A stretch of DNA of 63,292 nucleotides, filler included, from Atractiella rhizophila (lineage: Eukaryota), in NCBI GenBank assembly GCA_021432655.1. It is 4 parts of 4 records of this genome, joined end to end, with 100 filler letters (N's around TTAATTAATTAA, not from the genome) between each part and the next. Parts side by side here need not be neighbours in the genome. Positions count along the whole stretch, not along the records: positions 1 to 28,675 come from MU271193.1; 3 more parts are not named here. The stretch is one strand, 5' to 3'. Each line of letters starts with the position of its first letter. The first letter of the stretch is position 1. The notes beneath the pieces are model-generated. The model made no database searches, was not told the origin of the DNA, and saw nothing but the letters and a program-made list of their open reading frames with translations. Below, one piece after another: positions 1 to 60,115 of the stretch. Both the position numbers and the translations under genes were made by a program.

Positions 1-1298
1 TCAATGGACCTGAGCGTCCTGAACTCCACTCTCGTTGAAAAACAAACACTTTCCTTTCTTACTCACCACTAAGACAGAATCTAATTTCTCGTTTTTCTTT
101 TCTTTGAGTTGTGTTGAGCCTCGACATCAGAGCCTTTCAATGGTAAATATTGCTACAAGCATCCCTTGATCCCTTCGTCCAGGTGCAAACGATTTGAGTG
201 AGAGTGAAAGCCTCCAGTCAGGTATATGAGCAACCCTCTGTATAGGTTTGCAAATTTGGATTCTCCACTTACCTTCATGACAGGTTCAAACACAATCGCT
301 CCGGCCATCAATCAGCGCTGGCGCCTCAGCCAATTGTTTGACGCGTTCTCGGTACCTTCTCCGCTACTCCTGCCATTGGACCCAAAAGTCCACCAGCACT
401 CTCAGTGATACTCCCAGTTCGGTCGCAACCACACCTCTCTCAACACCGAGGTTACCACAGCCAGAGTTGTCCCCTACCACATCATACTGCCATCATTGAT
501 TGGTTCTCAGCGGACATAATTCTAATTCTAATAGGGATCAATCGATGGCTGCACAAAACACGCATCGCTACACCTCCCATTCTCCATCCTCCCTCCTCCT
601 CCGGTCATTCAAGGGGCTAAGTATTGCATAATCGTTCCTCTTCCTGGTCGTCAAGAACTCTGCCAAAGGGGAACGGCGCACATTTTCCTATCCTTATTCG
701 TGTAGCTTACCGTTTTGTTTCTATGCGAACGCAGGACTGAGAATCGCTGAGAAAGTCATTATCTAACTTTTCCATACATTTGGGTGTTTTAGGTACGCAT
801 ACTTCATTGTTACTTATGCTTCTATGTTCCTTTTCTTGCACTATGCAAACCATGTTTTAGAACCCATTATTTCGAACTCACCGCCGCTAAACGAGCCTTG
901 CCAGCTCTCACTTAGTCGCGTTACACCCAGCTTGCAAGGGAAACTGGTTCAGTCGAATACTGGAGCACTGTAGTCACTGTAACGTCCCTGATATCTTTGA
1001 GATGCCTTCTTATTCGCACTAAAGGAAAGCAGGGACTTCTGCTGGGCGGCTTGAGATTATTATTCATTAACTCATTATTCACGCTCTCTTCTCCAAAGTA
1101 AACATTCCGATTCCCGCGATAGCTTTTCAACGGAAGTATCGATTTTGCCGTCATTTCAACGTTGCTCGTCATCGCGCGGATCGCGAAGGAGCCATTAGCG
1201 AGCGGAAAGAACGAACCTTGACAAGCTCAAAGCTTGAAGTCTTCTCGCTTTGTCACAAACGCAAATCGCACGCAAATCGTCTGCAGCCAGGGAGGCGC

Positions 1299-2173
1299 TG
1301 AAGAGAGATACAACTTCCTTACTTCCTAGTGTTTAGTTTGAGCAACCGCAAAGAGTCTAGAACGAAGGGAAAAAGCCCGACCGGCCTATAGAGTGTCGGA
1401 GGCACTAGAGATGTAGACACCAACCCTGGACGAGCTGAAACTCACACTCGAAGCCGGACTGTGTTAGCTGCCGTCAGAGAACCTTCAACTCCAGAACCTG
1501 ACGTTCACATGGTCAAGTAAGAAGGCTACCGAGAGGGCGAACCCAGTGCTCTAGTTCCTAACACGACAAGTTCCAAAAACCGGACGAGGAGCGATGCTCG
1601 ACCTACCTAAACTCCTAAAAAGAAGACCCTGTTGGCTCTAAGCTACAGCCTCTATGCTGAGTATGTACATGGGTAGTGTTAGCTGCTGGAGATAGGTAAG
1701 TTGTTGGTGGTTCAAAGAGTTTAGAAACCTACAGTGCTAGAGAAGAACGTTCACACATAAACTGACCTAAAGTAAAACACCTGTTTCTGTAGAGTACAAG
1801 TAACGTTATCTACGGACTGGACCCAAGATACAACTAACACCTTTGACTTCTCAGGTTGTAGCAGAGAAGGCTAAAAGAGCTTAGAAAACTGACGGGGTTC
1901 CAGGTGTGTAATATGGAAATGCCGTGATTGCATCGTCACCTTTTTTCAGTAGACCACCAGGGGTCGCAGTCTGTGTCTCTAATCCCCTTTCACTTACACA
2001 AGACCAGGCTCGACACCCCGCTGGGTCTCTACCTACATGATAACGGAAGTGACTCTCCCAAAGGGGTAGAGCTTTCACTTAACACCGTCGTGTGGAAAGT
2101 GTCTAAATGCTACCCTGGCAAATCCGAAATGAAACTAGAGCGAATACCACTTCTTCTGCTTAAAGCTACCACT
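1299..2173. other. Mirror-encoded 3' half of a paralog of the F-box-like gene at 13627-15395 (read the complement left-to-right)
   Basis: The complement translates RWRFSDLASLFRAGRISHSLRDLYICGWDLLDFE...CKCTSSFFRWLSRL...FWPAPRYE...EIRLIHVPIT...ISSC/intron/CLTWFYVDCG...DCPKVHTLYL...FWSELWGDPE...EFRW*. This is colinear with RWHSADLLYLFHQGRTSDRLSSLYLVAWDLLDFE...CKVTASFIRWASRL...FWPSPHHE...EIRLRHLPIT...LSSC/SLSWLYIDCG...HCPKLVTLYL...YWGELWGAPE...FFRW*. There are several 1-nt frameshifts, mostly in homopolymer runs. Confidence 0.93.
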
Positions 2174-2394
2174 CAGTTACCCATTTGACGAATTACTCAA
2201 AGAGGTGCTGACACTAGGTCCTTACTGGCATAGCAGAACAACTATCAACACATAGCGCCCCGCCTTTGTACACGTATCGCCTTTATCATTTGCGAAATCT
2301 ATCTTGCATATTTTAGTATAATTGTTATAAGAAAGTATGTTAACAAAGAGAACTTTTTTCTCTGGGAGCGACGAACTGCGACTACAAAGAAGTC

Positions 2395-2937
2395 AATGAG
2401 GAGTCAAGGGGGTGCTCGCTCCGGAGGAAAGGACGGGAGGTGTACTCCTAGCCCAGGTCTGCGGGGTGGATAGGCGGGGTAAATACATTCCTTACAAGCA
2501 GTCTATTTTCCTCTGTCTGGTTTTGGCACGAGTCCTAAGCAAGAGAACAGTCCACACGGCAGGAAGAAGTTAGGTGGACAGTTGTACTTATTGTACTCGC
2601 AGAACTGCAGGTCGGGATTACCTTTCGGCTTTCCGCCTAACGCACCCTGTTTGGTACGAGGAAACCAGACATTCATAGTGAAGGTGGAGGCGGTCTTCTA
2701 AGTATTAGAAGTCATCAGAGCTGTCGAACAAGCACTGCTCGTAGTCGCGGACGAACAGGACGTGAGTTCAGTTCTACAATTGTTTTGTTAAAAAGATTTG
2801 TCTCCTCCTCACTGACTTGGTCGAAGTCCTAACAATCGAAACTTGGAGTACAGACCCGACGGCAGAACGGATGTACGTTTCATTTGTAGTTGTACGGGAA
2901 TTGTGTGTTCGTCTCGTGTGAATCATCCAGGCCAGTA
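2395..2937. other. Mirror-encoded complete 5-exon gene for a ~100-aa Gly-rich hydrophilic protein (read the + strand right-to-left, without complementing)
   Basis: ATG at 2937-2935, four GT..AG introns, TAA at 2397-2395. Spliced product: MTGPTKQDGSPDMRFKANNPEAGQAGADARHEQAVETTEDYESSGGGGSDTYRPKEHGGLKKDGTPDKRTNPEHGFGGASGPDPHVEGRKGGLARGGTEE. It has two K-x-DG-[ST]-PD-x-R motifs and a KGG motif. TATAAAA lies at 3035-3029 in the same reading. Confidence 0.9.
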
Positions 2938-3357
2938 CAACTACAACCGGACACTATAACATATGAGAAAACGGACAATAGCTTACAAGACTCAAACTAC
3001 CCAGGAACTGTCGCTCTCATCTCGTCATAAAATATCGAAACCCTCATCCTCCTCGTCTTCGATACTGCACTTTCCTGCAGTTTTTTGCATAGCTTATTGT
3101 CAAGGAGTAAAGGAGTCATGGCTAGAAGGGGTTTAGGGCGAAACAAGGTCGACTAAGATCAGGTTGCATGCTCGAGGTTGCTAAGGCTAAGGTCAGGGCG
3201 GTTGATACTTCCTCCTGCCAACGGAAGCCGACGTAAGTTATGTTGTCAGCTACGCGGTCGTGTTGTAACCGCCACTGTGACTCCCCGAAAGGTTGTCGTT
3301 ACCCTTTTCTTCTGGACTATAACAAACGCGTTTCCACTGTTTTAGTGACTAATACAA

Positions 3358-3382
3358 NNNNNNNNNNNNNNNNNNNNNNNNN
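3358..3382. other. Assembly gap (25 N)
   Basis: Run of exactly 25 N between the mirror block and the LINE. Confidence 0.99.
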
Positions 3383-6033
3383 TGAAAAAGCCTCTCTACT
3401 TCACTCCTCCTTCAACCCCTCTGCTCGCAGATGCGATCTCTCTGACATTCCACACCCCAATCCCCCCCTCCATCCCCTTCCCGCCCCCTAAAAATTGAGG
3501 AGATTGACGAAGCAATAGACAGGATTAAAACAGGCTCAGCGCCAGGACTCTCGGGCATTTCCAACAAGATGATAAAAGAGGTCAAGTTGGAGATCCGCCA
3601 CCACCTCCACAACATCTTCTCTGCCTGCTACCTAACAGGGTACTACCCCTCAGCCTGGAAACGCTTTACGACGGTTATCCTTCGAAAGCCCAAACGAGCG
3701 GACTATTCCCTTCCCTCAGCCTACAGGCCATTGCTCTCCTAGACTGTGTCGCGAAGGTCTTTGATGGCATCATTTCAGCCAGACTCACCTTCCACGCAGA
3801 GAGCAATGGAGCCCTCCCCTCCCATCACTTCGGTGCTAGGCCGGGTAGATCCACCAATGACGCTTTACTGACAGTTACGGAATTCATAAGAGAGGGCTGG
3901 AGGAACGGAGAAGTAACAGCATCGGTCTCGCTGGACGTCAAAGGCGCTTTCCCAACCGTGGTCCATGCACGCCTCATCGACAACTTAAGAAAGAGGGCAG
4001 TGCCGGAATGCGAGCTCGAGATCATCGAGGCATGGCTCCAAGATAGAGAGACTACCTACAACTTTGACGGCTATACCTCGAAGCCATTCGTCCTAGCAGT
4101 AGGACTAGCTCAAGGATCCCCCCTCTCTCCAATTCTATACTTATTTTACAATGCTGATCTCCTTGAATTACAGGGGCCAGAAGGGGAATCTCTCAAATGC
4201 GGGTTCGTAGACGACATCCACATGAATGCCCGTGCGACTAACCCAGAACGGGCTATTGCGAATCTCGAGGTGATGCTTGATAAAGCAATGGCCTGGGGTG
4301 AGAAACACGGTGCGATATTTGAGGAAGCCAAGACAGACTTTGTCCTCTATGGGAAACTAAAGAGGATGAAGTCCAGATTTGGGCACCTCACCATTCGTGT
4401 CGGATCTACAACCATATCGCAGTCACTGGAGATGAAGTACCTCGGAATGCTCCTTGATTCCAGGTTGACGTTCAACTCTCACCTAAAAGCGATTGAGAAG
4501 AAGGCGAAGTCGTCGCTCTCCCTTCTGGCAACGCTCTCCAATACGACGAAAGGCATCCCTCTATCTCATTATCGGCGCCTCTTCGAGGCTGCAGTTTGTG
4601 CTATGACGGACAACAACGCGATAATCTGGCATCACTTGGGGAAAAAGAGCGGAGGAGCAGAGCGCTTAGAGATAGTCCAACGTTACGCCCAGAGACTGAT
4701 ACTTGGAGCTTTCCGTACCACCCCAGCAACTGCTCTCGCTTACGACTCAAATCTACCTCCGGCAGTGGCACGTCTCGACAAAGTTGCTACAAGAGCAATG
4801 CTCAGATTACTCTCCCTCCCCGATTCCAACCCAGCAGGCAAGATCGCGAAAGGAAAGCTCAACTCACCCCCACCAAAAAAGCATCTATCCCCACTCAACT
4901 CGCTCCTGCTCTCCGATCACTTAAATTTTCCCAAGGATCTTGAAATCATTCCGGCCTACACCACCCATCCAGGTCACTCCCCGCCATTTGACACCTACAT
5001 CGCGGACTCGAAGGAAGAGGCCATGCAGGACTTCAAGAAGCTAAAGGAGGAAGAGGACATCTGGATATTCTCGGATGGCTCAAGAACGGAGGAAGGGGTA
5101 GCATGCGGTCTGGCGATGACGAATCCGGAAAGCAAGGCAGGCTATAGGCTCAGCAACCAGGACGACAACACCATCTTCGAGGCAGAACTCATGGGAATAG
5201 ATCGAGCCCTAGCTCTAGGCACGGCACTCAACATTTCCAAAGGAACAGTCTCATCCCTCCGCATCTTCACGGACTCTCAGGCAGCGATCAAAAACCTGAC
5301 GAAGAAACCAAGGTGCAAACCAGGAGTTGGCATCGTCCTCAACATCAACAGGTTGGCCGACAAATTTCGAAGACTTTACCCTACCTGCTCCATCTCCCTC
5401 CACTGGATACCAGGACACAGCAACATCAAAGGTAACGAGCTAGCGGATGCGGCAGCTAACAGTGCAACAGATCCAGAAACTGCAACAGGACACATCGTCA
5501 TCTCGAGAAGCCCAGCCGCACTCAAAGCGATCATCACAACAAATCGATTCACTCCCAAAGAGGCCTCTCCCCCCCCATCCGGCAAGCACCACCACTCTCT
5601 ATCTCGTCGACTCTCCCCGGATCAAACCTTCGACATGCTGAAGGAAATGCCACGCGCCCAAGCGTCAATCTTCGTCCAGCTACGTTCAGGCCACACCTCC
5701 ATCAACAATTACCTCCACCGTATCGGGGCATCAGAAGAACCGTCATGCAACTTTTGCGGAATGAGGGACACAGTCACCCACCTTTTTTTCGAATGTGAGG
5801 AACACGAGGACGAAAGGAAGAAACTTAGGAGCAGGCTGAGGAAGAAGGACATCAAATTCAGGTCACTTAGCGACCTCCTAAGCGAACCTGAGGCTACGCA
5901 AGCAGTGTGGGAATTCATCAGGAAGAGCGGGAAGTTCAGCTTATGGATCAAAAGGGCTCAAAGGGTGCTGGATAGGAGGAAAGAAGAGAGGAAAAAGAGG
6001 GCGGAAAGTAGAGGGGAAGAGCAAGAGGAGTGA
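3383..6033 (+). CDS. LINE ORF2 (reverse transcriptase, RNase H, CCHC finger), partial
   Basis: RT motifs SAPGLSGI, YRP(I)ALL, HFGARPGRST, LDVKGAF, QGSPLSP, FVDD, KYLG. RNase H motifs FSDGS, EAELMGI, TDSQAAI, HWIPGH, GNELAD. Zinc finger CNFCG..TVTHLFFEC. Two frameshifts in C-runs near 3470-3490 and 3730. Confidence 0.93.
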
Positions 6034-7660: not shown

Positions 7661-10600
7661 AAAACTCGGTGAGATGAATTCCTTTAATTCCTTCATAGTC
7701 AAAACAATTCCCCTGTTAATTTCTAACAGTACAGTTCTGCTATTTAGTGAATAGACTCTAATTAAGCCGTCTTTGTTTAGTTCCCCATTAATATTGTCTG
7801 CCAGTAGCTCTCCTTCTTGAATATGGTACAACGAGAAGAAGTTATATCTATTGGCAAACTGAGGCACGACTGAGATAATGCTGACCGCTGCAACTCGTCC
7901 AAGAGCATGTCAGATACGGGAAAGAGATAAGACATAATTCGGCGTTCACCGATGCACCGTTGTGTCCTTATAGTCTGAAGAATGGTGGTAACCTTGAATA
8001 GAGCAACTGCAATCAGCCAGGACTGGGAGTCGAGTCGGCTAAAATCACTGACACACCAGATTGTAGGACCATCCTTCAGGGTCAGCCTAGTGACTGGCGC
8101 ACGCAAGTCGTTAGAGATCTCTGTGACGTGCCTGACCTGCAGCCTAGGGCAAGCAAGGTGAAGTCGTCAAGGATGTTAAGAGAGAGATTCGCAATGGTCA
8201 CATAGAAAGCATAGAGAGCGCGTTTCAGACATGGATAAGGTCGATGCCAAGTTGCAACATTCCGCGCGATATTGCCTCATTTGATGTAAAGCAATACAGG
8301 ACAAAGCAGAGAACATTGTCTTCAGAGCATGAACGGCTGCAAGCCGAAATGTAAAAGTTCAAGAAAGGGAAGTAACCAATAAAGCCAAATCGTCAAAAGA
8401 GACCTTACCTCTATGTGGGGATACCCAAGCCACTGCCTAATGCCTAAGCGAGCAGTTGTCCTGCTTTTCTCTGAACACTGATCACCTTTCCTCAGTCGGA
8501 ACCTTGTCAACTTTGCTTGTTTGAAAAATTTGCTCCCGACACCCGCATCCGCGACGACGCTGGACCAAACATAACATACAGTTGCCCCTGAAAACGACAA
8601 AATAAAATGTCGAAAAGACGCGCAGAAAAGCAGTTGACAGATACGTGAGTATCCTGTCTTGAAGGTTGGACGTGATTTTCTGATGTGTTTTCAGAAACTG
8701 GCAGGACGCGGATCAAGATGAGGGGAACGAGTCTGTAGACTCTGACGGTCCTTTCAAGAGAGCGGACGACAGGGAACTGTCAGGAAGGAAAATTCGGAAG
8801 CTGCCTAGTGTCCGGAGAGGATTGACTGCTCCTGCCTCTGGAGCTGCCCCAGCTTTTGGTTTTGGAGTTTCACCGTCGCCTCCGCCTGGACTTACTCCTT
8901 CTAGTTTGGTGAGTCCTTTGTACGATAGCATTGGGGAGGGATATGTATTTACGACTGGTGTGCTTGTTCGCTTTCTCGGGAACAGCCCCTCAGTCCTCTC
9001 GACGCAAACCTCCAATATTACATGTCCCTGCGCGGCCTCAATGTCTCCCTTATCTCGCACCTCCAAAGTGTAGTAGACAAGGACCCGTTCGCTGATCTCT
9101 CCACTGTCCTCGCGTCCGCTCTGCCGATGTATACAAAGGAAAGGACTGGTGCAAACGCAAAGAAGGCCAGCAACAATCCTGTCAACCCTCCCGCTGAGGT
9201 TGCGAGTGAGAAAGGGCCAGAGAAGTCTGTTGGAGTAATAGAGGCGAAGGCAACGGAGGAAGCTGTTGGAGAGAAAGTTAAAAAGAACTTGTTCGGAGGG
9301 TTTACGCCTGTGACAACCAAAGTACCACCAGCCCCTGCTTCCACGGAAGTTAGTGGAACCGGAGACAAGAAAGAAGAAAAGAAACCCCTATTTGGAGGAT
9401 TCGGCGGTTTTGGTGGTGCCACTGTGGGCTCTTCTTTCGCTACGATCGCCCCATCTTTTGGTGCTCCAACGATAACTTCGTCGACATTTGGTGCACCAAA
9501 AGCGGAGGAGAAGAAAGAAGAGAAGAAGAGCTTGTTTGGAGCATTTGGAGGCACGACGTCGGAGAAGGAGAAGACGAGTACTGGCGCTTTTGGAGCTTTC
9601 ACTGGCTTTGGAGGGCCGAAGAAGGAAGAGCCGAAGGAGGAACCGAAACCTGCCACTCCTTCTCCATCCATGCCTTCTGTACCTTCCGCCTTTTCTTTCG
9701 GCGGGAAGACGATATCTTCTACGAACACCACTGGCGGAGCAACCGCACTCCCGCCGTCACCAGGTGGCTTTACGTTCAAACCTTCCTCCTCTTCGACAAC
9801 GTCTACCTCGACAAGTGCATTCTCGCTCCCCTCGCCTGCTTCCGCAAGCGTACCGGCTACGCTCAGCTTCGGAGGTTTGAAGACAGCGAACAAGCCGGAC
9901 CGTCCGAGCCCTTTGCGGGTTAGTGAAAGTGCTGACAACCTCTCGAGCACGTCTGGCCCGTCGAAAGAGTCAGACGCTGCGGGAGAGAAGAAGGGTGCAC
10001 CAGCATTTACCTTCGGAAAGACGAATACACCATTCGCATTCACCACGCCGAAGACACCTCCAAAGCCGACAGGGTTCGGTACAATTGGCGGACCAAAAGC
10101 TTCGCCCCCTGCTGCCAGTATTGGGTTCTCGTTCGGCGGTGCAGGCGCATCTCCCTTCACATTTAACCCTCTACCTACATCTACCACTGCAACCACCGCG
10201 CCGGGAAAGACGGTCTTGGCTCCCACAAACTCAACCACCGAGACCGAAGAAGAGGCTGAGGAAGGGCCATTGAGTCCTTCGGAGCGAGATGGGACGGAAA
10301 ATCTGTTTCTCAAGGGACCACGAAAACTCGGTGAGATGAATTCCTTCAATTCCTTCACAGTCAAAACAATTCCCCTGTTAATTTCTAACAGTACAGTTCT
10401 GCTATTTAGTGAATAGACTCTAATTAAGCCGTCTTTATTTAATTCCCCATTAATATCGTCTGCCAGTAGCTCTCCTTCATGAATATGGTACAACGAGAAG
10501 AAGTTATATCTATTGGCAAACTGAGGCACGACTGAGATAATGCTGACCGCTGCAACTCGTCCAAGAGCATGTCAGATACGGGAAAGAGATAAGACATAAT

Positions 10601-12974
10601 TCGGCGTTCACCGATGCACCGTTGTGTCCTTATAGTCTGAAGAATGGGTGGTAACCTTGAATAGAGCAACTGCAATCAGCCAGGACTGGGATTAGTCGAG
10701 TCGGCTAAAATCACTGACACACCACATTGTAGGGCCATCCTTCAGGGTCAGCCTAGTGACTGGCGTACGCAAGTCGTTAGAGATCTCTGTGACGTGCCTG
10801 ACCTGCAGTAGCCTAGGGCAAGCAAGGTGAAGTCGTCAAGGATCTTAAGAGAGAGATTCGCAATGGTCACATAGAAAGCATAGAGAGCGTGTTTCAGACG
10901 TAGATAAGGTCGATACCAAGTTGCAAGGCCTCATTTGATGTAAAGCAATACAGGACAAAGCAGAGAACATTGTCTTCAGAGCATGAACGGCTGCAAGCCG
11001 AAATGTAAAAGTTCAAGAAAGGGAAGTAACTAATAAAGCCAAATCGTCAAAAGAGACCTTACCTTATGTGGGGATACCCAAGCCACTGCCTAATGCCTAA
11101 GCGAGCAGTTGTCCTGCTTTTCTCTGAACACTGATCACCTTTCCTCAGTCGGAACCTTGTCAACTTTGCTTGTTTGAAAAATTTGCTCCCGGCACCCGCA
11201 TCCGCAACGTTGCTGGACCAAACATAACATACAGTTGCCCCTGAAAACGACAAAATAAAATGTCGAAAAGACGCGCAGAAAAGCAGTTGACAGATACGTG
11301 AGTATCATGTTTTGAAGGTTGGACGTGATTTTCTGATGTGTTTTCAGAAACTGGCAGGACGCGGATCAAGATGAGGGGAACGAGTCTGTAGACTCTGACG
11401 GTCCTTTCAAGAGAGCAGACGACAGGGAACTGTCAGGAAGGAAAATTCGGAAGCTGCCTAGTGTCCGGAGAGGATTGACTGCTCCTGCCTCTGGAGCTGC
11501 CCCGGCTTTTGGTTTTGGAGTTTCACCGTCGCCTTCACCTGGACTTAATCCTTCTAGCTTGGTGAGTCCTTTGTACGATAGCATTGGGGAGGGATATGTA
11601 TTTATGACTGCTTATTCGCGTTCTCTGGAAAAGCCCCTCAGTCCTCTCGACGCAAACCTACAATATTACATGTCCCTGCGCGGCCTCAATGTCTCCCTTA
11701 TCTCGCACCTCCAAAGTGTAGTAGACAAGGACCCGTTCGCTGATCTCTCCACTGTCCTCGCATCTGCTCTGCCGATGTATACAAAGGAAAGGACTGGTGC
11801 AAACGCAAAGAAGGCCAGCAACAATCCTGTGAACCCTCCTTCTGAGGTTGCGATTGAGAAAGGGCCAGAGAAGTCTGTTGGAGTAATAGAGGCGAAGGCA
11901 ACGGAGGAAGCTGTTGGAGAGAAAGTTACAAAGAACTTGTTCGGAGGGTTTACGCCTGTGACAACCAAAGTACCACCAGCCCCTGCTTCCACGGAAGTTA
12001 GTGGAACCGGAGACAAGAAAGAAGAAAAGAAACCCCTATTTGGAGGATTCGGCGGTTTTGGTGGTGCCACTGTGGGCTCTTCTTTCGCTACGATCGCCCC
12101 ATCTTTTGGTGCTCCAACGATAACTTCGTCGACATTTGGTGCACCAAAAGCGGAGGAGAAGAAAGAAGAGAAGAAGAGCTTGTTTGGAGCATTTGGAGGC
12201 ACGACGTCGGAGAAGGAGAAGACGAGTACTGGCGCTTTTGGAGCTTTCACTGGCTTTGGAGGGCCGAAGAAGGAAGAGCCGAAGGAGGAACCGAACCCTG
12301 CCACTCCTTCTCCATCCATGCCTTCTGTACCTTCCGCCTTTTCTTTCGGCGGGAAGACGATATCTTCTACGAACACCACTGGCGGAGCAACCGCACTCCC
12401 GCCGTCACCAGGTGGCTTTACGTTCAAACCTTCCTCCTCTTCGACAACGTCTACCTCGACAAGTGCATTCTCGCTCCCCTCGCCTGCTTCCGCAAGCGTA
12501 CCGGCTACGCTCAGCTTCGGAGGTTTGAAGACAGCGAACAAGCCGGACCGTCCGAGCCCTTTGCGGGTTAGTGAAAGTGCTGACAACCTCCCGAGCACGT
12601 CTGGCCCGTCGAAAGAGACAGACAACGCAGGAGAGAAGAAAGGTGCACCGGCATTTACTTTCGGAAAGACGAATACACCATTCGCATTCACCACGCCGAA
12701 GACACCTCCAAAGCCGACAGGGTTCGGTACAATTGGCGGACCAAAAGCTTCGCCCCCTGCTGCCAGTATTGGGTTCTCGTTCGGCGGTGCAGGCGCATCT
12801 CCCTTCACATTTAACCCTCTACCTACATCTACCACTGCAACCACCGCGCCGGGAAAGACGGTCTTGGCTCCCACAAACTCAACCACCGAGACCGAAGAAG
12901 AGGCTGAGGAAGGGCCATTGAGTCCTTCGGAGCGAGATGGGACGGAAAATCTGTTTCTCAAGGGACCACGAAAA
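7661..12974. repeat. ~2.66-kb tandem duplication (copy 1 ~7661-10322, copy 2 ~10323-12974)
   Basis: The copies are near-identical, with scattered SNPs and indels. The junction is ...GGACCACG-AAAA-CTCGGTGAG. Confidence 0.95.
8607..10324 (+). pseudogene. NUP2: Truncated NUP2/Nup50 copy lacking the Ran-binding domain (probably an allelic or assembly duplicate)
   Basis: Same N-terminus and FG region as 11260-13343, cut at the duplication junction just before the RanBD. Confidence 0.75.
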
Positions 12975-13343
12975 GGGGAAGAGGAAGAAGAAGAGGTTGG
13001 AGCTGAAAAGGCGGCTAAGGTTTATCGATATACGAGCTCTGGAGATAAGAAGGAGTGGAAAGAAGTTGGGACTGGGGTTGTGAGAATAAAGCGACAGAAA
13101 GGAGGTGATAGAAAGAGGCGCTTGCTTGGAAGGATGAACGGTACTCAAAACGTGATGGTAAACGTCGCACTGAATAAGGATTTCAAGATCAGCCTCGAGG
13201 GATCGAGTGTCTGTTTCCCCGCTTGGCGCGAGGAAGAAGGGAAGATGGTGGCGATGAGGATGAGACTAAAGAGCAAGGAGAAAGCACAGGAGCTTATGGA
13301 GGAAGTAAAGAAGGAGATTGCGGCATTTGAGGAAGGTAACTAG
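11260..13343 (+). CDS. NUP2: Nucleoporin Nup2/Nup50
   Basis: N-terminal MSKRRAEKQLTD...FKRADDRELSGRKIRKLP (NUP50 motif), many FG/FxFG repeats, and a C-terminal RanBD (AKVYRY...WKEVGTGVVRI...RRLLGR). Introns at ~11298-11347 and 11562-11633. Confidence 0.9.
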
Positions 13344-13626: not shown

Positions 13627-15395
13627 CTACCACCTAAAAAACACGGGAGGGTGATCCCTCATGAGGACATGCAGGTGTAGGTTGCCCATCTTCGTTTGCC
13701 ATGAACTCTCGCCATAGAGTTCAGGTTTGACATTATTGAGATCTTCGAGCTTCGACAAAACACCCTCGGTCTCTGGAGCTCCCCACAACTCTCCCCAATA
13801 AAACGACAAAGTCTGAGGCGCAGTCGCTTTGTCCTGTCGTTCTGCCCATGCGAGGATCTTCTCGAGACTGATACAACAGCTAAAGAGATATAGTGTGACG
13901 AGTTTAGGACAGTGCAGCGTTTCGAGGATCGAAGGGGAGACGAGGTTGGAATCGCCACCACAATCGATATAGAGCCATGATAGGGAGCTACAGTCAACCA
14001 AGGATCAGCTTCACTCATGAGTGGAGAGAGCGGATGGTAAAGGTACCAGCATGAGGAAAGAACGTCCAGTGGTTCCAAAAAGCTAGCTGAGCCAAATATC
14101 CCGACAGTGTCAGTCGTGATGGGGAGATGCCTTAAACGGATTTCGGTGACAGATTCTCGTACATCGAGCAGAAAACTTTTGAAAGATTCAGTCTCATGAT
14201 GAGGAGAAGGCCAGAAACTCTCGAAAGCCAAATCAACCAGTTGAGGGCACAGACGCGAAGCCCATCGAATGAACGAAGCTGTAACTTTGCATTTGACAAG
14301 TTCAAAAGTTTTCAGGTTCCCTTTGACGCTTCCATAGTCTGGCTGCTCTTCGAAATCTAACAAGTCCCAAGCAACAAGGTATAGACTGCTAAGGCGATCG
14401 GATGTTCGACCCTGGTGGAATAAATACAAGAGATCTGCAGAATGCCAACGTGCTAGGTTATGAGCCCTCACCCCTTCGATGTGAAGAGAATCTAATGTTT
14501 CCATTTGGGCAATCAAATACATGACCCGTTGGCGAGAAGATGCCTTGGTAGGTGGCCGAAGTGAAAGAACGAGGGTACGAATGCTGTGACCCATTCCAAA
14601 GTACATGGATGCAGTTTTCCACACAATGTTACGATTATCGAAATCGTTGTCGCGGAGAAGAAGCATCCTGATCCATGGTACTAACTTTTGTTGATACCGC
14701 TGTAGAAACTTGACAATATTGACGCTTTTGATCATATCAAAAACAGGAGAACCTCGCATTTCTGTTTGAGCTCCAATTTGGCGATAAAGGGCAATTTGAC
14801 CAACACCGTCGAACCGTCGACATACCAGACGAAATATCTGGATGTGTGCGAGATTCTGTTGATATTGACGAAAAGCAAAATGCCGTTCGGACTCTGGCGC
14901 CAGCTGGTGCAAGTGAGGCGAAGCTAACATCTCAGTCAAACAAGAGAAAAGTATTTCGTTTGGCAGGGAGTCAAACGGATTCACTTCCCAGGCTTGAAAT
15001 AGTTGTATATCGATTGTGCTCGACGTTCGTAAATGAGAAAGTGTCCTGAGACTGCGATGAAAAGTTAACGTCGGTGGAAGATCTGTAGTATCAATACAAA
15101 TGCGGTCAGAATCTTGCAAAATGTCGACCTCAGGCACATCGATGGAGCAGATGAATGCCGGTGTCGACAGTCGAGCGCGAAAAATAATTGGACCTGACGG
15201 TGGGAGTTTTACAAAAAGAAAAGTTCGCTGGGAACAATCTTCCTCTGAATATGAAATATGTACGACAAATGTCTTCGCGTGAGCAAGCCAGAGTCTTGCC
15301 GTGGCTGTAAAAATCAACCTCGCAATAACTGAATCGGAGTCAATATCCGTTTCAACGCTGTGAACACAATTGGACACATTAACCACGAGAGCCAT
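13627..15395 (-). CDS. F-box-like protein with a degenerate LRR-like C-terminus
   Basis: F-box-like segment FDSLPNEILFSCL...FRLVCRRF. One phase-2 intron at 14046-13988 joins the 578-aa and 124-aa ORFs. A paralog lies in the mirror block. Confidence 0.7.
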
Positions 15396-28675: not shown

Positions 28676-28775
28676 NNNNNNNNNNNNNNNNNNNNNNNNN
28701 NNNNNNNNNNNNNNNNNNNTTAATTAATTAANNNNNNNNNNNNNNNNNNNNNNNNNNNNNNNNNNNNNNNNNNNN
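28676..28775. other. Artificial 100-nt spacer (44 N + TTAATTAATTAA + 44 N)
   Basis: All-frame stop linker centred in Ns; the same spacer occurs at three sites. Confidence 0.98.
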
Positions 28776-50026: not shown

Positions 50027-50126
50027 NNNNNNNNNNNNNNNNNNNNNNNNNNNNNNNNNNNNNNNNNNNNTTAATTAATTAANNNNNNNNNNNNNNNNNN
50101 NNNNNNNNNNNNNNNNNNNNNNNNNN
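50027..50126. other. Artificial 100-nt spacer (44 N + TTAATTAATTAA + 44 N)
   Basis: Same linker as at 28676. Confidence 0.98.
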
Positions 50127-60015: not shown

Positions 60016-60115
60016 NNNNNNNNNNNNNNNNNNNNNNNNNNNNNNNNNNNNNNNNNNNNTTAATTAATTAANNNNNNNNNNNNNNNNNNNNNNNNNNNNN
60101 NNNNNNNNNNNNNNN
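60016..60115. other. Artificial 100-nt spacer (44 N + TTAATTAATTAA + 44 N)
   Basis: Same linker as at 28676. Confidence 0.98.

Follow-up and report, generated by a model that had tools for sequence, protein, structure and literature searches.

Can a stretch of a genome record code for a protein when it is complemented and not reversed, and if it can, what has happened to it? The question is raised by positions 1299 to 2173 of a 63,292-nucleotide stretch of DNA from Atractiella rhizophila (assembly GCA_021432655.1), the whole of which is called the window here. In this complement-only, or mirror, reading the region had been predicted to be a hidden paralog of an F-box-like gene 12 kb downstream (the native gene), the two belonging to a local cluster. 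Three 100-base spacers (28676 to 28775, 50027 to 50126, and 60016 to 60115), each built as N44, TTAATTAATTAA, and N44 with stops in all six frames, show the window to consist of at least four concatenated pieces, so that two genes separated by a spacer are not neighbors. The features under discussion are collected in Table 1.

Table 1. Features of the reversed block and its surroundings (positions along the window)
Feature	Position	Strand or reading	Remarks
Reversed, non-complemented block	1298-3357		5-mer direction score; 16-letter loose end
Part of second-last exon, residues 395-545 of BT69DRAFT_187006	1299-1751	complement-only	Extra bases 1338, 1617, 1627, 1701
Intron, GT..AG, phase 2	1752-1810	complement-only	59 bases; SSCK/CLTW; BT69DRAFT_187006 protein (P0002) reads across as SSCK/CLTW
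Last exon, residues 545-662, with stop (2171-2173)	1811-2173	complement-only	Extra bases 1824, 1843, 1946, 1962, 1986
3' flank of the mirrored gene	2174-3357		Directly behind 1297 in true orientation
25-N gap	3358-3382		In true orientation, borders on the truncated 5' end of the gene fragment
LINE-like (non-LTR) retroelement fragment	3383-6033	+	Cut at its 5' side by the gap; RVT_1, RNase_H, weak zf-RVT
Native paralog, BT69DRAFT_1315547 (P0001)	13627-15395	-	Exon 15395-14047, intron 14046-13988, exon 13987-13627 including stop

Similarity to the native gene in the mirror reading

In the complement-only reading, positions 1324 to 2170 matched residues 310 to 569 of the protein encoded at 13627 to 15395 with a tblastn E value of 8e-37, in two pieces of 103 and 57 bits (36% and 30% amino acid identity), whereas positions 1 to 3357 as written gave a best tblastn E value of 2.8 against the same protein. 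The same was seen with tblastx against the rest of the window, where complement-only 1 to 3357 reached an E value of 3e-33 and the sequence as written found no match. As a control, the 875 bases of 1299 to 2173 were shuffled 200 times by mononucleotide and 200 times by triplet. The mononucleotide shuffles scored 16.9 bits on average (standard deviation, 2.4; maximum, 25.4) and the triplet shuffles 17.1 bits (maximum, 25.0), compared with 103 bits for the best observed piece, and the region as written stayed at the noise level with 16.5 bits. The predicted colinear similarity, its restriction to the mirror reading, and its excess over shuffled controls were therefore all borne out.

All of the motifs that had been listed are present in the three-frame mirror reading. 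WDLLDFE was seen there directly, and the pairs FWPAP/FWPSP, CPKVHTLYL/CPKLVTLYL, and WSELWGDPE/WGELWGAPE are common to the mirrored piece and the native gene, as is EIRLIHVPIT/EIRLRHLPIT, which lies in a shifted frame within the mirrored piece. The native gene opens with an ATG at 15395, has a GT..AG phase-2 intron of 59 bases, and ends in FFRW and a stop, for 569 amino acids when spliced; the mirrored piece likewise ends in FRW directly before its stop. The expected common phase-2 intron was found at the same place and with the same length in both genes, SSCK/CLTW in the mirrored piece corresponding to SSCC/SLSW in the native one. Despite the common C-terminal motifs, intron, and FRW end, the mirrored piece is a paralog distinct from the gene at 13627 to 15395, because identity is only 36% and 30%; the two are, as proposed, too divergent to be alleles.

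Extent and form of the reversal

Reversal of DNA without complement keeps its composition and destroys its coding and k-mer direction signals. We scored direction by comparing each 5-mer with the same letters spelled backwards, as a log ratio of strand-symmetric counts trained on the rest of the window. The 1-kb chunks from 4001 to 63000 were positive without exception (59 of 59; 3.8 to 40.0), as was the chunk 1 to 1000; those from 1001 to 2000 and from 2001 to 3000 were negative. The running sum peaked at about 1308 and reached its minimum at the gap. For the block 1298 to 3357 as a whole the score was -218, compared with a mean of +168 (standard deviation, 43; minimum, +62) in 29 cross-validated control segments of equal length, none of which was negative. 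The direction scores thus leave 1 to 1297 as normal sequence and confine the mirrored part to about 1300 to 3357.

The form of the reversal was read from public contigs of the same organism, which derive from two runs (coded X1 and X2) of one sample. Contigs of both runs align normally on 1 to 1297. In one X2 contig the match stops at 1297 and is followed by 16 letters that equal positions 3357 down to 3342 (16 of 16). With up to two mismatches allowed, this 16-mer occurs in the window only as the reverse form of 3342 to 3357; it was found neither as is, nor reverse-complemented, nor complemented. Since the loose end fits the reverse-only form alone, the block is reversed and not complemented in place, and the in-place complement that the original prediction literally described is ruled out as the form of the fault. 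In the true order, 1 to 1297 is followed by 3357 down to 1298 and, after that, by the gap.

This join across 1297 rests on a single 16-letter loose end, and the contig that carries it is not identical to the left flank. An X1 contig matching the flank departs from it over 952 to 1297 by 9 letters and 30 gap letters, skips 744 to 951, and is about twice as deep as the neighboring single-copy contig; over the two runs, the depth ratio is about 2 to 3. Because of this divergence and higher depth, the 16-letter continuation may stem from another copy of a repeat. Over 1111 to 1297, the same contig has one listed difference from the window, at 1202.

Positions from about 740 to 1297 form a repeat region, with a summed contig depth of up to 5616 in the bin 801 to 1000 and a high-copy part at 779 to 927. 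Many contigs end or diverge at 923 to 927 and at 779, and one leaves out 744 to 951; together this gives the impression of a small high-copy insertion.

Other observations around the block were neutral. Open reading frames, tRNAs, and flank-to-block repeats across 1297 gave nothing telling on continuity, and no long open reading frame of note and no tRNA was found in 2174 to 3357. A blastn comparison of the block with the remaining window sequence gave no match, whether the block was taken complement-only or attached to the left flank in either of the two possible ways. The bins from 1401 to 3200 are covered by no X1 or X2 contig, which is expected of a reversed block and was not counted as evidence. 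On the far side of the gap, a 30-letter contig loose end before 3383 fitted the window in none of the four forms, and, compared with the window, the public contigs carry single inserted bases at 3461, 3727, and 3729; this side, with the LINE-like fragment (open reading frame 3529 to 6033; RVT_1, 2.7e-22; RNase_H, 1.8e-10), may be of lower quality or a different copy.

Reversed, non-complemented sequences reportedly serve as deliberate controls, in the Dfam paper among others. In contrast to such decoys, the block 1298 to 3357 appears as an error inside a genome record. A literature phrase search for reversed, not complemented assembly errors found no paper on assemblies among the 9 listed of 15 matches, and a search on the Atractiella genome gave no assembly description among the matches listed.

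A fragment of BT69DRAFT_187006 and the origin of the block

The protein that the complement-only block resembles best is not that of the native gene. The block matches, far better, BT69DRAFT_187006 (KAH8923058.1; P0002), an A. rhizophila hypothetical protein of 662 amino acids with a complete model, which is recorded on a scaffold of 88,447 bases; the public model of the native gene is on one of 191,464 bases. Residues 395 to 662 of P0002 are covered by 11 exact in-frame pieces of the block, set apart by frame shifts. After the intron and the nine extra bases listed in Table 1 had been dropped, 267 of 269 positions were identical to these residues plus the stop, the two differences being E504D and A538V. 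Each of the nine is one base long and lies within a homopolymer run of 2 to 6 letters.

Compared with the public model, the block in 1299 to 2173 thus reproduces residues 395 to 662 and the stop, but it runs backwards, lacks residues 1 to 394, and carries nine extra bases and two amino acid differences. The mirrored fragment begins right at the start of the reversed block, 1299 being one base inside it, which in true orientation is the contig end before the gap. Residues 1 to 392 of P0002 are absent from the whole window in either reading, and when the entire window was searched by tblastn with both proteins (native and P0002), in the written and in the complement-only form, only the two known places came up. 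What had been taken for a hidden paralog is part of an already annotated gene with its full model on a different scaffold; judged by this near identity, the mirrored gene is already in the public protein set and no new gene is present.

The in-frame TAG at 1982 to 1984 is a product of the frame shifts in the last exon. Because the length changes are nine additions of one base in homopolymers, with no deletion and almost no substitution, the frameshifts and the stop look like sequencing noise. A pseudogene reading, based on the frameshifts and on this TAG, was considered and dropped, as the nine homopolymer overcalls account for both. Nine insertions with only two amino acid changes could in principle be those of a very young pseudogene.

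That reading is part of a wider one, in which the turned block is a true second copy of BT69DRAFT_187006 beside 1 to 1297. This copy, from a recent segmental duplication or from the other haplotype, would end or be interrupted at or near the gap, would have real frameshifts, and would be a young pseudogene lying some 12 kb away from its paralog. The scaffold does place the block 12 kb from the paralog, the X2 contig joins left-flank-like sequence to the true start of the block, and the block, with E504D and A538V, departs from a letter-perfect copy of P0002. Gene decay would also give deletions and substitutions, however, and the block has the pattern of base-calling noise instead, with all nine length differences being +1 in homopolymers and only 2 substitutions in 269 codons; the 5' 392 codons, moreover, are nowhere in the window. 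We regard a true second copy as highly improbable.

Very probably, positions 1298 to 3357 represent a fault of the record, being real A. rhizophila DNA that was reversed without complement and that carries the tail of BT69DRAFT_187006 with homopolymer overcalls. Read correctly, the minus strand of the block would hold the final 268 codons of this gene together with its last intron and its stop, and the frameshifts (at least four) together with the in-frame stop would correspond to nine single-base overcalls arising from sequencing or consensus noise. Most likely, the block originated when a contig end was extended into the gap, from one side only, with noisy long reads, and this extension would then have been written out with a strand-handling error. 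We infer a gap-closing extension from three properties of the block, namely, that it begins inside a contig and stops at a short gap of fixed size, that its base quality is visibly lower than that of the sequence around it, and that it has undergone the wrong strand operation. In PBJelly, 25 N's denote the minimum gap. One published paper gives 25 as the default minimum gap setting of PBJelly (PMC6240028), a statement that does not concern this assembly.

The fault might instead have arisen after deposition, during preparation of the window, in which case it would be absent from the public assembly. Some processing did occur, since the pieces of the window are joined by N44-TTAATTAATTAA-N44 linkers, but the block is not bounded by linkers; it begins inside a contig and ends exactly at a 25-N gap of native appearance, and it coincides with a change in sequence quality, marked by the homopolymer overcalls. 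A reversal of this late date appears quite unlikely.

In its true orientation, the gene fragment of the reversed block is read from the minus strand and its stop points to 1297. Because the fault is a reversal, and no mere in-place complement, the truncated 5' end of the fragment is turned to the 25-N gap, and the expectation that the missing 5' half lies towards the gap agrees with this geometry. The further suggestion that the 5' half is interrupted by the LINE is without support, since residues 1 to 392 are nowhere in the window. Local clustering of the paralogs, which had also been proposed, is unproven because the full gene model is on another scaffold, and the gap extension that the block represents may be redundant or anchored in the wrong place. 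Three arrangements are possible: the 88-kb scaffold belongs at the gap and the locus was assembled twice, the block was wrongly anchored through the repeat at about 740 to 1297, or there are two copies.

The second of these, with the DNA coming from the BT69DRAFT_187006 locus on the 88-kb scaffold and the paralogs not being neighbors, deserves real weight, even if we lean against it. The sole contig covering 1201 to 1297 in X1 and X2 is a diverged repeat copy of raised depth, the flank has its high-copy part at 779 to 927, and the gene has a clean and complete model on a different scaffold. Against this, that contig, with its one listed difference over 1111 to 1297, may well be this very locus. 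On whether the fault is systematic, such that stretches beside short N gaps are reversed without complement and real gene parts become invisible to annotation, and the F-box-like paralogs may truly be neighbors, our judgment is almost evenly balanced, falling slightly on the negative side.

Elsewhere in the window, 8347 to 10326 and 11001 to 12974 form a direct duplicate of 1,980 bases with 97.9% identity and 6 gap letters. It covers the upstream region and the first 1.6 kb or so of a gene with a NUP50/RanBP1 domain (11337 to 13343), the copy being without the RanBP1 end. Either a true partial duplication in tandem or redundancy of the assembly may explain it.

A family of paralogs with an F-box-like motif

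Exon 1 of the native gene was searched against 1.84 billion representative proteins at a cutoff E value of 0.001. Seventeen representatives were found, making 18 proteins (P0001 to P0018) with the cluster member P0018. The 16 of the 17 that were looked up, together with P0018 and P0001, are all hypothetical proteins of A. rhizophila and are spread over many scaffolds, and no relative from another organism was found among the representatives at this cutoff. By this sequence search the family would comprise at least 18 paralogs, seen so far in A. rhizophila only. P0002 has 42% identity to exon 1 of the native gene. P0012 and P0016 are each recorded on a contig of 106,414 bases, which is probably one and the same.

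The public model of the native gene, P0001, has 394 amino acids; it starts at an internal methionine 155 codons inside the open reading frame and skips 20 residues. Upstream of this start (14930 to 15395, minus strand) the frame is open for 155 codons to the ATG at 15395, shows conservation with P0002 as far as about 15302, and includes LPNEIL, one half of the F-box-like motif. With an extension this long, open, and conserved, the model looks N-terminally truncated.

The F-box consensus consists of helices of the form LPxE(I/L)L ... (L/F)RLVC(K/R)xF. The family alignment keeps DPFxxLPxEL, followed by an insert of 15 to 30 residues and then IQxFRLVCRxF, which resembles a split F-box. Pfam models for the F-box (PF12937/PF00646) gave no match in the native gene at an E value of up to 10 and none in P0002 at an E value of up to 0.01. 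One of the 17 members, P0015, passes PF12937 (24.8 bits; cutoff, 24.3) and one more lies below the cutoff; in the other 15, the native gene and P0002 included, the Pfam F-box was not recognized. The label F-box-like is thus weakly backed, neither of the two genes having a Pfam F-box.

The mirrored fragment, which starts at residue 395, is without the F-box-like region and contains only the C-terminal part, which resembles leucine-rich repeats. A profile of the family gave weak matches to PDB sequences (E values of 0.003 to 0.07), among them ribonuclease inhibitor (0.003) and the leucine-rich repeats of NLRP1 (0.009). The structural look-alikes of P0002 in the Atlas are mostly fungal F-box-like and leucine-rich-repeat clusters, with TM scores of 0.44 to 0.51 that provide a lead only. 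The family may parallel the FBXL-type adaptors of SCF ligases in its motif resembling the F-box consensus and its weak matches to leucine-rich-repeat chains, but differs from them in that its motif is split by the insert of 15 to 30 residues. Its members appear to have an F-box-like motif followed, probably, by a leucine-rich-repeat part. As a working reading based on family resemblance, the intact protein would probably be a substrate-recognition subunit of an SCF ubiquitin ligase.

The value of these observations is practical and not biological. Users of the assembly will miss or misread genes beside gaps of this kind, since the reverse-only reading is tried by no aligner and by no gene finder, and apparent pseudogenes at these places may be mere sequencing noise. 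The 5-mer direction test finds reversed blocks without outside data and can be applied to whole assemblies. For the locus itself, the outcome is neither a new hidden paralog nor a shown pseudogene, and the local cluster is unproven; it is a data fault lying over an annotated gene. The mirrored gene is an ordinary, already public member of a lineage-restricted F-box-like family.
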